This document shows positions 53,164-59,549 of a stretch of 64,000 nucleotides of DNA, one piece after another; position 1 is the first letter of the stretch, and each line of letters starts with the position of its first letter. Where the stretch lies: NCBI GenBank assembly GCA_964016885.1, contig OZ024741.1, positions 212,722,001 through 212,786,000 of the forward strand. Direction: 5' to 3'. The DNA comes from Eledone cirrhosa. Its lineage: Eukaryota. Below the pieces are notes generated by a model, which did no database searches, was not told where the DNA came from, and was given only the letters and a program-made list of their open reading frames with translations. The translations under genes and the position numbers were made by a program.

Positions 53164-53515
53164 ATTTCGTTTCTGAATTTGTTTAGCATGATTCTTTATC
53201 TAAAATCGTGTGTTGAAACCGATATTGTTATACTTTGGGAGGGTCATGTTGCCAATAAGAAACACACGCACAAGTTGCTTTCACTTCAATTTATTATTAT
53301 AATAAATTTATAATAAATTTATAAATTTATAAATTTCTGGTTGGTTGGTTGGTTCCACATATAAACAACTATCTGGTTGTGGAACCAACCAACCAACCAG
53401 AAATTTATAAATTTATAAATTTATTATAAATTTATTATAATAATAAATGGAAGTGAAAGCAACTGGTGCGTGTGTTTCTTATTGGCAACATGACCCTCCC
53501 AAAGTATAACAATAT
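53164..53515. mobile_element. Mini inverted PLE (3' tail only), same termini as 55741-59486
   Basis: Left end atttcgtttctgaatttg, right end ccctcccaaagtataacaat; inversion junction at ~53359. Confidence 0.9.
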
Positions 53516-53680
53516 ATATATATATATATATATATATATATATATATATATATATATATATATATATATATATATATACATATGTATTCACATATATATA
53601 CATATGTATCTATATATTTATATATATATATATATAAACATATATATCTATCTATAAACATACATATATATATATATATA

Positions 53681-53912
53681 TGAATGTATTAGTGTATTTT
53701 GCAATACACTGTATGCTTAATTAAAAACGTCTCACTTACTTTAAATTTTCAGCAAACAGGGGAGCATTTTTGCTGAAAATTTAAAGTGAGGCTGTAACTA
53801 CTCTAAAACAATAGCGTAAGGTCTTCGAAATGTTTTTAATTAAGCATACAGTTTATTGCAAAATACACTATATATATATTCATATATATATCGCTATTTC
53901 AGAACACCAATA
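53681..53912. mobile_element. Short foldback element (family F)
   Basis: IR 53681-53728 / 53832-53883; other copies at 10030-10230 and 55436-55727. Confidence 0.65.
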
Positions 53913-53920
53913 TATATATA

Positions 53921-54795
53921 AGGAAAAAAGATGAAATCGAAAATGCAACTGGAGTCGTTTTTTTTTAAATATATATTTATTTGGTTCCTTTACCTATTTC
54001 GCAGTGCTTGAGCTTTTCAAAAGTAGAATTTAGATGGAGGGTTTGTGGTTTTTCTCGCATTGGATTGGTGTTCGAATGTTACTTCTGTTTTATATGGAAA
54101 AAAGTGGCTCGAAATGCTAGGTTTTTAGAAAAGTAATTTTTTCTTGACCACTGGTTTGGCACAACATTCTCTAAATGGCTACAAAAAAATTCAAAAATAC
54201 GGGCACGAAATTTAATGTACGTGTTCACGTGACAGTCATAATTTCATTTATACCCAATCAAATTACATTTATAAAAAAAAGCCTTCGTAAGCCATATATT
54301 TTTAAGTAAAAATAAATTCAAACTCAAACTGGCGCGAAAGCTGATGTGCTTATTCACGTGACTGCATTAACCAACCAAATTTCACTCATGTATGAAAAAA
54401 CAATCTGAGCCCCCCCTTTTTTTAAAGGCAAATATAATAAGAACTTTGTAACGCGAACTGGTGCGAAATTTATTATACTTATTCAGATGAGAGTCATCAA
54501 CCAACCAAATTACTTCTCTAAAAACCTAGCATTTCGAGCCACTTTTTTCCATATAAAAAAGAAGTAACATTTGAGCACCAACCAGATGCGAGAAAAACCA
54601 CAGACTCTCCATCTCAATTCTAATTTTGAAAAGCACAAGAACTGCGAAACCGGTAAAGGAACCAAATAAATATATATATATTTTTTAAAAGACTCCAGTT
54701 GCATTTTCGATTTCATCTTTTTTTTTCTTTATACTTTCACCCTTGTAGGACATCTCGTTTTTTTTTCATTTTGTAAAAGAAACCTCACTTTCTAG
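53921..54795. mobile_element. Inverted-arm element (family G) with U3-A8 HHR motifs and internal ~130 bp repeats
   Basis: IR 53921-54138 / 54508-54730; TTGAAAA gca..tgc GAAA ccgg TA at 54618-54661 (+) and 53985-54028 (-); subrepeats at ~54201, 54331 and 54461. Confidence 0.7.
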
Positions 54796-54924
54796 TATAT
54801 ATATTTCTAATATATATATATATATATATATATATATATATATATACACACTTTATTTTATCGACCCCGTAAGGCTGAAAGGCAAAGTCAACCTCGGCGG
54901 GATTTGAAACATTCGATTCAGATG

Positions 54925-55435: not shown

Positions 55436-55727
55436 TAGAATTGGTGCTCTGAATTAGGGATGTATACATGAAGATATATATATAATATTTGGCAATATAT
55501 TGAATGCTTAATTAAACAAATTTTGAAGACATTCCGCTATTATTTTAAAGTAGTGACTATCTATATTACTTACTTCTTTTTTCAACAGTCTGTCAGCTTA
55601 TCTCCCTTTGGTTGTTGTAAAAAGAAGTGACATAGTCACTACTTTAAAATAATACCGCAAGGTCTTCAAAATATTTTTAATTAAGCATACAGTATATTGC
55701 CAAATATACTATATATATACATTCATA
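55436..55727. mobile_element. Family F foldback
   Basis: IR 55460-55560 / 55632-55727. Confidence 0.65.
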
Positions 55728-56709
55728 TATATATATATATATTTCGTTTCTGAATTTGTTTAGCAAGATTCTTTATCTGAAATCGTGTGTTGAAACCGAT
55801 ATTGTTATACTTTGGGAGGGTCATGTTGCCAATAAGAAACACACGCACCAGTTGCTTTCACTTCAATTTATTATATATTTATAAATTTATAAATCTACAA
55901 ACTTATAAATTTCTGGTTGGTTGGTTCTACAACCAGATAGTTGTTTATATATAGTAATAGTCCTTTCGTCACACACTCTGTGACCTCTTCAGTGACTGGG
56001 GATTCCTTTCTTTGTTTCTGTGCCTTTCCTTTCTTCTGTCCTACGCCATTTTGTTTCTGTGTGTGTGTTGTGTGCTCAGTTTGCGCATGCGCCACATCCG
56101 GGTGTCTGAGTGTGTTTGTGTTCATTTATCTATTTGTTTATTTATTTATTTATTTATTTACATGTTGTTGGTTGGTTGTTTGTTCTATGTGTGTGTGTGT
56201 TTTCATTTTTTCCTTAATTGTAAGTTGTGATGTTGCTGTTCCACACATATTTTCTATTTAATTTTGGTTGTAATTCTTTTATGCTTACTGCCTCTGTAAT
56301 TTGCCTAAACATTGCATCTTTTCTGTGTGTGGATTCTATTTTTATTTCTATGTTCTCTAATTTACCCTTGTGTTCTATCTTAGCATGTTGGTAGAGCACA
56401 GATGATTCTTTATTATCTTGAAGGTCTCGCCAGTGTTCATTTATTCCCCTATACTACGAGCTGTCTCACCTATGTACACTATATGTTTGTTTCTACATTG
56501 TCCTTCAGTACATCTTATGCTATACACTACATTTCTAGTTTTACAGTTAATATGGGGGCTTATTTTACAGGTAATACATTTCTTATCTATACATGAGGGT
56601 CTTTGGAACGGGTATGTCTTGCTAATAAGTGTTTTTACGGAGGTACCTGGTATTTCTACTATCTTAATATTGAGTTTATGTTTATTTAGGGCCCTTCTAA
56701 ATTTGTAAT

Positions 56710-59067
56710 CCCTCCGATAAATCATTCGACCTGCGACGAGTCCACGCCACGACTTTACCATTTAACAAACGCACGCAGTTGCCGTCGCAGGTCGATGAAC
56801 AAACAGAAGCACAATTTAGTATAGCTAAATCCGAACTTAGAAATATTATAGAACAGTATGGCAAGAAGCATAATAGAATAGAGGCCCAGCAACTGGGAGA
56901 AAAATCTGCAAATGGCTTGCGTAAGCTCATGCAGCGCTCACGTAATGGAGAGATAGCATGCTTTCCAACAGACAAGTCTGGCAGAATGTCGGTTGACAGC
57001 CTGCCAAACTACATCCAGGCAATGCAACCCCACATCACTAACACAAGAGAGGTAACACCACAGGAGCATGAGGATAGAGAAAAAGCCCTCAATGCCCATA
57101 TGGTGATGTGGACGAATATAATGCAGCCCAACAAAAGGACTGCTAACAACTTCCAGGCCTGGAACAATGACGTGCCGGCGTTGTATGGGCTTCGAAAAGA
57201 CCATAAAACGGGCTGTGACCCTGTCGCGGGACCACCAACACGGCCAGTCTGTGGAGCTAACATTGCTAGTAACTACAGACTGTCCTACTTCCTCTCCCTG
57301 ATCATACGCCCCATCATTGAGATGTCCCCAGATGTATGTGACAGCACGGAGGACCTCCTCAGCAGAATCGGCGTGAGTAACCGATCTGGGGACCTAACAA
57401 ACTGCATAATAGGCAGTATGGATGTTGTGTCCCAGTATCCATCTATTGACGTGGATTTTGCTGTGGAGAAATGCGTAGAAATGATCAGCGAGAGCAAGGT
57501 TGAGTTCCGTGGGATTGATACCAGTGAGCTGGGACTTCTACTTAAGCTTACCCATAGTAATAGTTACCTAGACACTTATGACCTTAGCAACCTGTGCCCT
57601 ACAAGACCAGCAAGAGGCAGACCACCTACCATTACCTCAATGACCAAGAAAACCCACACAGAGAGATGGAACGTGTGGACCAGAGCAATACGGACACCCG
57701 AAAACCACGATGAACTGAAGAAAATGATTGCACATGCGGTAAAGGCCAGCATAAAATTAACCCTTAAGGAACATATGTTCAAATTTAATGGTAAAACATA
57801 TGCCCAAGAGGAAGGAGCAGCCATTGGTGTTAGCATTGCAGGCGACATAGCTAACTTATTCATGGTATGGTGGGACAGTAGACTTAAACAAAAACTTAAA
57901 TAACAATTAGAAGACAGCTTAACCCTGATAATGTACTCCCGCTACGTAGATGATATAAACATCGTAGTTAAGACACCCCCACTAAAGAAAAGTCAGGAAC
58001 TAGAGAAAAACACAATGGAAAGCATCCAGCAAATAGCAAACTCCATCCACCAGAGCATTAGAGTTACTATAGACTACCCAAGTAGACACCCCAACCATCG
58101 ATTACCTGTACTAGACACAGAGCTCTGGTTAGATACCATTAACAACCAAAAACAAATCCTCCATTCCCATTATGCCAAACCCATGACTTACAAACATCTG
58201 ATCCACCGAAACTCGGCCATTTCGGACCATACCAAAATCAACATACTGATTGCGGATTTGGTACGGGTGATGAGAAATGTGTCCCGCATGTGCAACCCCG
58301 AAGAACTAGAGAGACACATACAACTCTTCATCCACCGTATGCAGTTCTCTGGCTACAATCAGAGAGATAGAATCAGAGTGTATAGAGGAGCCAGAACCAA
58401 ATGGGAAAAAATGGTAAATAATGACATAAATGGGACCTGCCCCTTGTATAGGAGCAAATTTTGGAATAGAATAGAAAGAACTAGGAACAAGGCCAATAGA
58501 ATAAACTCATGGTATGATTGCAATAAATACCAGAGTGTAATGTTCATCAATACAACCCCTAGAGGCGAACTAGCCTACAAATTTAGAAGGGCCCTAAATA
58601 AACATAAACTCAATATAGATAGTAGAAATACCAGGTACCTCCGTAAAAACACTTATTAGCAAGACATACCCGTTCCAAAGACCCTCATGTATAGATAAGA
58701 AATGTATTACCTGTAAAATAAGCGCCCATATTAACTGTAAAACTAGAAATGTAGTGTATAGCATAAGATGTACTGAAGGACAATGTAGAAACAAACATAT
58801 AGTGTACATAGGTGAGACAGCTCGTAGTATAGGGGAATAAATGAACACTGGCGAGACCTTCAAGATAATAAAGAATCATCTGTGCTCTACCAACATGCTA
58901 AGATAGAACACAAGGGTAAATTAGAGAACATAGAAATAAAAATAGAATCCACACACAGAAAAGATGCAATGTTTAGGCAAATTACAGAGGCAGTAAGCAT
59001 AAAAGAATTACAACCAAAATTAAATAGAAAATATGAGTGGAACAGCAACATCACAACTTACAATTAA
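56710..59067 (+). pseudogene. PLE reverse transcriptase + GIY-YIG endonuclease (1 stop, 2 frameshifts)
   Basis: PTDKSG, LYGLRKDHK, RPVCG, SMDVVSQYPSI, QEEGAAIG, YSRYVDDI, LPVLD, CITC..CKTRNVVYSIRC..YIGETARS; TAA at 57901, frameshifts at ~58616 and ~58837. Confidence 0.92.
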
Positions 59068-59277
59068 GGAAAAAATGAAAACACACACACACATAGAACA
59101 AACAACCAACCAACAACATGTAAATAAATAAATAAATAAACAAATAGATAAATGAACACAAACACACACAGACACCCGGATGTGGCGCATGCGCAAACTG
59201 AGCACACAACACACACACAGAAACAAAATGGCGTAGGACAGAAGAAAGGAAAGGCACAGAAACAAAGAAAGGAATCC

Positions 59278-59325
59278 CCAGTCACTGAAGAGGTCACAGA
59301 GTGTGTGACGAAAGGACTATTACTA
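59278..59325 (+). ncRNA. PLE-associated minimal HHR (inverted copy at ~55954-56000)
   Basis: agtca CTGAAGA g gtcaca gagtg tgtgac GAAA g ga c TA ttact; helix I has a mismatch. Confidence 0.65.
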
Positions 59326-59549
59326 TATATAAACAACTATCTGGTTGTAGAACCAACCAACCAACCAACCAGAAATTTATAAGTTTGTAGATTTATAAAT
59401 TTATAAATATATAATAAATTGAAGTGAAAGCAACTGGTGCGTGTGTTTCTTATTGGCAACATGACCCTCCCAAAGTATAACAATATATATATATATATAT
59501 ATATATATATATATATATATATATATATATATATATATATATATATATA

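Follow-up and report, generated by a model that had tools for sequence, protein, structure and literature searches.

Inverted Penelope-like insertions with one long and one short arm in a 64-kb window of Eledone cirrhosa DNA, and their possible origin at two staggered priming sites

An inverted Penelope-like insertion and its mini-copy

The window analyzed here, 64,000 nucleotides (nt) of Eledone cirrhosa DNA (contig OZ024741.1, positions 212,722,001 to 212,786,000), contains a head-to-head Penelope-like element (PLE) of 3.7 kb between (TA)n tracts (E1), a mini-copy of the same plan (E2), and a series of shorter TA-bounded inverted insertions (Table 1), whose two arms end at one long and one short site. 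The left and right arms of E1 were identical at 896 of 899 aligned bases, with 3 gaps. The original prediction held that the 3.7-kb PLE and the 350 bp mini-copy have identical ends, and this proved correct to the base: the short ends both stop at ..aagtataacaatat (last common base 59486 in E1 and 53515 in E2), and the long ends lie 58 nt beyond the short site, at ..cagaaacgaaat (55741 and 53164, respectively). Comparison of the flanks outside (TA)n by blastn revealed no similarity for either copy pair (four of four comparisons empty), which rules out the segmental duplicates that the prediction had named as the alternative; since the central joints differ as well, E1 and E2 are separate insertions. 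No stable RNA structure was found around the two sites of this main family (fold z +0.70). A GAAACGAAAT-like word occurs at or near the long end of the main family (55741-55752) and in the family A hairpin (62644-62672), as well as in two other repeats (59754-59775 and 8433-8460); it may be a common recognition motif, or chance.

E1 has the features of endonuclease-bearing (EN+) PLEs, namely inverted pseudo-long terminal repeats (pLTRs), 5' truncation and a tail on one end. Reverse transcriptase (RT) motifs were present in its open reading frame (ORF), with a weak RVT_1 match (E 1e-4, below cut-off), and a GIY-YIG-type endonuclease (EN) pattern, VVY..C..C..YIGET.R..H..H, was spread over the broken 3' frames, for which no Pfam GIY-YIG match was obtained. 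At E <= 0.001 the ORF had 254 homologs, of which the closest (69%) carries the source label Octopus vulgaris and points to an octopod as the likely host; the intact homologs of the ORF carry both RT and GIY-YIG. A linker, CIDKKCITC (CX4CxxC), is followed by C..C..H..H (CCHH) residues. A CX2-5CxxC linker upstream of the endonuclease together with the CCHH motif defines Neptune/Nematis (PMC8557442; this and the other publications cited are represented here by parts of their text), and by these definitions E1 is, on its predicted residues, a Neptune/Nematis-type PLE. Assignment to the Hydra clade (without CCHH, with a CxCX5C linker and DKT) was rejected, as E1 has CCHH, CX4CxxC and DKS. A frame break in the endonuclease is common to both arms of E1; thus the broken 3.7-kb copy was likely mobilized in trans.

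The end of the E1 pLTR and the tail form one open frame of 28 codons from ATG 59461 (+) or 55824 (-), which resembles, weakly and by post hoc choice, the N-termini of three relatives (P0024, P0026 and L001). The N-terminus was the best ungapped match in P0024 (rank 1/790) and ranked 3/1022 in P0026, both picked post hoc; among the 38 long homologs it scored best in only two, and the BLAST E value was 0.13. These matches are suggestive of a tail that encodes the N-terminal start of the ORF in the tandem unit that follows, similar to Pen2a_Av, in which pLTR plus tail encode the first ORF residues (PMC3846280). The hammerhead-like core of the E1 pLTR has a 6-bp stem II, without an Rfam match. Metagenome contigs of relatives showed terminal direct repeats, expected of collapsed tandem PLE units (L001, L002, L007 and L014), and a hammerhead-like core shortly 5' of the next ORF start (L001, L002 and L014).

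Table 1 Coordinates of the insertions and other repeats in the window
Feature	Position (strand)	Remarks
E1	55741..59486	Head-to-head inverted Penelope-like insertion, 3.7 kb, (TA)n tracts on both sides
E1 left arm, long site	55741..56707 (-)	Tail, pLTR and endonuclease-coding 3' end of ORF
E1 tail	55741..55798 (-)	58 nt separating short from long site
E1 right arm	56702..59486 (+)	
E1 central joint	56702..56707	6-nt arm overlap; upstream boundary taken from read loose ends at 56702
RT-GIY-YIG ORF of E1	56701..59067 (+)	5'-truncated, broken; stop 57901-57903; frame breaks near 58616 and 58830-58840
E1 3' pLTR	59068..59486 (+)	Stops at short site, 26 nt past ATG 59461
Hammerhead-like core of E1	59285..59313 (+)	CUGANGA, stem II, GAAA; mirror copy 55964-55992 (-)
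E2 mini-copy	53164..53515	Same head-to-head plan as E1
E2 left arm	53164-53359 (-)	Tail 53164-53221
E2 right arm	53359-53515 (+)	1-nt joint overlap
Related PLE subfamily	33730..35097 (+)	Single arm, 69% DNA identity in ORF, same ..aagtataacaatat short site
E3, family A	23943..24763	Retrozyme-like, with a hammerhead; short arm left, long arm right with 67-nt tail; arms overlap by 1 nt at 24355
E4, family A	61607..62684	Short arm left, exceeding one 467-nt tandem monomer; 74-nt tail; arms joined at aag (62292-62294)
E5, family B	24786..25562	Left short, right long, tail 118 nt
E8a, family C	55439..55726	Long arm left, short arm right; a read-through monomer lies at 10028-10230
E8b, family C	53682..53911	Short left, long right; two ends same as E8a
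E10 hairpin	59547..59740	Tail about 85 nt; relatives 52421-52562 (long end), 33188-33235 (short end)
E11, old family D copy	59754..60382	Long left (187 nt further), short right; relative 54919-55335
E15, tandem-monomer copy	50531..51135	Short left, long right, about 4-nt joint overlap
E19, single-copy family	60571..60999	Arms 128/128 identical; 44-nt tail on left arm
SINE-like repeat copies	659-881, 4253-4470, 11091-11305, 18296-18501, 25604-25781, 27823-28289	
SINE-like repeat copies, continued	36327-36544, 38155-38861, 43659-43846, 54850-54908, 62718-62814	

Long and short arms in TA-bounded insertions

A scan for inverted pairs within 5 kb across the window gave 39 rows, from which those without an outer end at most 10 nt from (TA)n (pairs of short interspersed nuclear elements (SINEs) and internal hairpins), pairs across elements and duplicates were dropped, leaving 16 structures. 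Unequal arms, one long and one short, were found in 15 of these 16 TA-abutting structures. For 10 of the 15, from seven families, the tail was confirmed as element sequence through a second copy or tandem read-through, and all 10 were long and short; the tails of the other five (9805, 29790, 51161, 53921 and 60571) lack such confirmation. Two family C copies looked symmetric at first, and turned out to be long and short after their read-through monomer (10028-10230) was found. If the arms chose their sites independently, at most half of the pairs would be mixed, and the bound on chance is 0.001 for 10 of 10 (0.5^10), 0.008 for the seven families counted once each and 0.0003 for 15 of 16. The combination of one long and one short arm, predicted for several families, was recovered in the 59550 element and in the other TA-bounded palindromes; no certain match could be made for the predicted labels F and H.

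Family A consists of a 467-nt tandem monomer with a type I hammerhead (Rfam HH9, 38.6 bits, E 3e-6, under the 52-bit cut-off), and read-through was seen; by its sequence it is a retrozyme-like non-coding PLE passenger with putative self-cleavage. Its two copies had been predicted to share ends about 70-75 nt apart, which was approximately the case (tails of 67 and 74 nt), but the ends differ by 3-4 nt: the short ends are 3 nt apart (23943 vs 61607), and the long ends are 4 nt apart in a T-run (24763 vs 62684). The hairpin said to precede the long end is real (fold z -2.65), and the aag overlap at the joint of E4 is exact. A single-arm relative of E5 stops at the short site of E5, near 61050.

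Use of the same short site beyond the two main-family copies was seen in public contigs (run X1; 0.60 of query words present, 16,344 records aligned), where loose ends in (TA)n piled up at 55799, the exact short site, in at least 127 contigs (one of the 12 rows listed, out of 1,564). Fixed endpoints, which the original prediction expected in a histogram of arm ends, were recovered for the short site. An accumulation of 2153 read ends at 55753 was rejected as a masking artefact, and loose ends at 55907-55914, which sit at a simple repeat of variable length, were set aside. Besides the single-arm subfamily element in Table 1, a subfamily copy at 17778-18534 stops two bases before the short site of the main family. 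At the metagenome locus L003, whose protein is 47% identical, the element stops in (TA)n 8 codons past an ATG downstream of its ORF, like E1, whose short site comes 26 nt past the ATG. Compared with the E1 tail, a related one at 348-402 is shorter by about 17 nt, so the long site differs between subfamilies; in this subfamily copy (141-402) the tail arm begins only about 10 nt before the short site, and an intact-looking hammerhead core lies at 185-212 (-). Among 26 metagenome loci of relatives there were no TA-bounded two-armed copies, and the exact end motifs had no matches in viral contigs or in prokaryote genomes.

Neighboring insertions of different families meet at common short TA tracts (55439-55740 and 53682-54809), and the adjoining pairs (E8a beside E1, E8b beside E7, E10 beside E1 and E11) amount to serial targeting of one (TA)n. 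At 31876-33693, a pLTR of the 59550 family is inverted head to head, with about 500 nt of the same microsatellite-rich flank in both arms, which resembles a duplication of 3' read-through sequence to either side. More hammerhead-like cores were found in other repeat families, at 11375-11401 (-), 30349-30372 (+) and 24880-24917 (-).

Two non-LTR retrotransposon ORFs, one an open frame of 1141 aa at 44088-47513 (-) (RVT_1 E 4.5e-23) and the other frameshifted at 40598-43659 (+), both combine RT with a C-terminal PD..D restriction-like endonuclease motif and are presumably R4/Dong-like; inverted pairs lie around them (43187-43608/48513-49053 and 38924-39465/48111-48493). A SINE-like dispersed repeat of roughly 200 nt was present in at least 12 copies, 80-95% alike. 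Rfam matches to miRNA and snoRNA were low-complexity or hairpin artefacts below cut-off.

Probable priming at two sites and competing explanations

The inverted arms probably arise from two fixed, staggered sites, with a (TA)n cut on both strands and one RT start site for each strand. The template would be RNA of tandem units, running from the pLTR into the next ORF start; read-through of this kind was seen in families A, B, C, D and E15, and would have to occur in E1 too. Both target strands would be cut and extended, as the anole PLE does in vitro, and each target 3' end is likely held at its site by 1-4 nt of pairing to an AU patch. The upstream internal site of the RNA would start RT from one strand and the downstream site from the other; the 15 of 16 count suggests that a single complex, perhaps with a dimer, likely occupies each of the two sites once. 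Both complementary DNAs (cDNAs) would be copied from the same source transcript or from sibling transcripts, with variable stop points, and their 3' ends would be joined via short microhomology or a template jump, at times with extra bases. Use of both sites in one event is what we infer from this arrangement. Coupling of the two start sites, one per strand, and the extension of the same rule to retrozyme-like passengers are modestly hinted at. Taken to its strict form, to which we would give slightly less than even weight, the scheme would be an obligately asymmetric double priming, in which one complex sets its two RT active sites on two fixed AU patches, both in one RNA species and each serving one target strand; every two-armed insertion would then be long and short, retrozymes would follow the same rule, and the two sites would form the cis-signal for mobilization.

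The overlap of the element end with the TA phase was 1-4 nt (mean 2.9) at all 15 independent ends with known RNA continuation, family A being entered at its lower value, 1. By comparison, random cuts gave a mean of 0.94 (p 4e-5), AT-rich positions 1.45 (p 0.008) and very AT-rich positions 1.81 (p 0.055). The predicted priming at AU patches agrees with the overlap at every end, but less clearly so against very AT-rich positions, and AU pairing at the start sites has moderate support.

Identity between the arms of one copy was 98-100% (111/111, 127/129, 321/321 and 317/318), compared with 91-97% between copies (100/105 with 4 gaps, 310/321 and 309/318), and of the 11 listed alleles that depart from the majority of reads, the E1 arms have 9 in common; thus both arms come from one source. 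Since the two arms of one insertion duplicate the same RNA stretch of 130-900 nt, two template molecules or strand displacement would be needed. The exact overlap at the central joint was 6, 1, 1 and 3 nt in E1, E2, E3 and E4, respectively, and about 4 nt in E15 and 2 nt exact or 6/7 in E5, the latter two read by eye across one mismatch. In 211,366 reads (run X24), strand-switch joints shared 1-3 letters, and further head-to-head joints (for example 56433 to 56822, 56443 to 56834, and 56108 to 58277 or 58337) contained 1-24 extra letters. Joining by microhomology, as originally proposed, fits the six joints with 1-6 nt of exact overlap, but several of the read joints have extra letters.

Several points weigh against priming at two fixed sites. 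The read evidence covers the short site only, the long site being inside a masked stretch (55715-55752). Later gene conversion could account for part of the arm identity. The one symmetric exception (31876-33693), old and of low complexity, has two arms that both pass the short site into copied flank. The count comes from a single window, with hand-called ends for old copies, and the ends of family A wobble by 3-4 nt, with only a 1-nt overlap with (TA)n at three of its four ends. Finally, there is no rule for which arm reaches further 5'. A polarity rule, with the tail-less arm always further 5' owing to leading and trailing RT on one RNA, was rejected at 7 vs 4 (p 0.55; 5 vs 1 in young copies, p 0.22), and strict leading and trailing RT on one RNA is thus not supported. 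The tail-less arm is further 5' in E1-E5, E12 and E15 (by 1.9 kb in E1), and the tail-bearing arm in E8b, E11 and probably E19 and E7, with E10 a near tie; the orientation of E19 was read from its purine skew (0.61) and from a degenerate hammerhead stem found on the minus strand.

Among the alternatives, the one that survives best, though unlikely, is EN-mediated resolution, put forward in PMC8557442, in which the two arms have the same start and one of them is later nicked or resolved at the short site by the endonuclease. It would likewise yield an obligate pair of long and short arms, and the D. virilis EN requires the tail for recognition (cited in PMC11167929). However, in vitro RT starts at either boundary of the tail (PMC11167929), single-arm copies (33730-35097, 61050 and L003) stop at the short site with (TA)n following immediately, and a resolved end would still need to be rejoined to (TA)n with 1-4 nt of overlap.

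Less probable again is that the arms choose their sites independently and that the excess of long and short pairs reflects chance, ascertainment or loss of symmetric palindromes. The absence of a strand difference in start site in vitro (PMC11167929) and the description of the tail as "optional" or "often" one-sided (PMC3846280 and PMC8557442) would suit such independence, as would the one symmetric case, the five of 15 asymmetric cases with unverified tails and the restriction to one 64-kb window. The 10 of 10 verified long and short cases (at most 0.001) stand against it, and an inverted-repeat scan detects symmetric pairs at least equally easily.

We consider it quite improbable that the cDNA folds back and primes itself, or that RT copies an antisense transcript (the self-priming model of Arkhipova 2013, PMC3846280). 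Near-identical arms, hairpin-like joints in E10, E14 and E8a, and the tail on the 5'-longer arm in E8b, E11 and probably E19 and E7 are as fold-back predicts. However, the tail-less arm is the one further 5' in the seven copies from E1 to E15 listed above, which is impossible for a copy of the tail-bearing cDNA; each arm of E1-E5 has sequence missing from the other, so that fold-back of a single cDNA is excluded for these five; and the antisense-template form would need antisense RNA whose 5' end is fixed at the short site. TA flanks with inverted ends also resemble Tc1/mariner miniature inverted-repeat transposable elements (MITEs), but segmental duplicates or MITE-like DNA transposons with terminal inverted repeats, which could fit old single-copy cases such as 53921-54809, can hardly account for the insertions, being refuted for E1-E5 by unrelated flanks and copy-specific internal joints and at odds with the RT-GIY-YIG ORF, the tandem monomers with hammerhead cores and the unequal arms.

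Relation to known systems

In L1 twin priming, the position of the second site varies, and the two pieces are not known to duplicate one another. A product of the L1 type was therefore rejected, as the arms here duplicate 130-900 nt and end at fixed sites. The likeness to L1 (Ostertag and Kazazian 2001, summarized in PMC10760644) lies in two primings at one target, joining by microhomology and head-to-head inversion.

The elements as such are ordinary representatives of an abundant class. Their PLE signature is a known one, seen here in a new host family. For O. vulgaris, 31 recently active PLE families are described (PMC13282606), and inverted pLTRs and short 3' extensions are standard for PLEs (PMC8969392). 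Animal retrozymes have been argued to be PLE derivatives (bioRxiv 10.64898/2026.07.22.740005), and the retrozyme-like families here resemble the non-LTR retrozymes of that work, proposed PLE passengers, in their short tandem non-coding monomers and type I hammerheads. Their ends and tails are not discussed in its available text, whereas the retrozyme-like families here carry the inverted long and short architecture of PLEs, which argues for PLE-type target priming.

The closest parallel is the anole PLE (PAc, Poseidon of Anolis carolinensis), whose protein cleaves AT-rich DNA on both strands, extends both and is predicted to dimerize (PMC11167929, Frangieh et al. 2024). Its RT starts, with no strand difference, at two internal RNA sites within the ORF start that bound the genomic tail, and its pLTR carries a hammerhead (PMC11167929). 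The twin priming of both cut strands at two RNA sites in the original prediction agrees in outline with this in vitro work and is to that extent not new. The insertions here differ in that the element is of the Zn-finger-linker (Neptune/Nematis) type and lies in (TA)n, in that tails are 44-118 nt and longer vs 30-40 in PAc, in that the short site lies 26 nt past the ATG vs about 111-118, and in that the target overlap is 1-4 nt vs "not homologous" (PMC11167929). The pairing of sites in each insertion is not treated in the available text of PMC11167929, and was counted here.

The completion of PLE integration and the origin of inverted one-tailed insertions are declared open in PMC11167929 and PMC8557442. 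If the long and short pair is the rule, the two known RT start sites would be tied into a single two-strand event, inverted pLTRs would be explained without antisense RNA, and retrozyme insertion by PLE proteins would have direct structural evidence. The insertions resemble those of the Pen2a_Av type in the head-to-head 5'-truncated arm, the tail on one end and the bias to (TA)n, and an inverted arm with a tail often at one end only is described in the same sources (PMC3846280 and PMC8557442). There the one-sided tail is optional or frequent and is explained by self-priming or EN resolution, whereas here it was found in 15 of 16 structures; the one-sided tail itself is thus an already described Penelope feature, and the count of long and short pairs is the new part.

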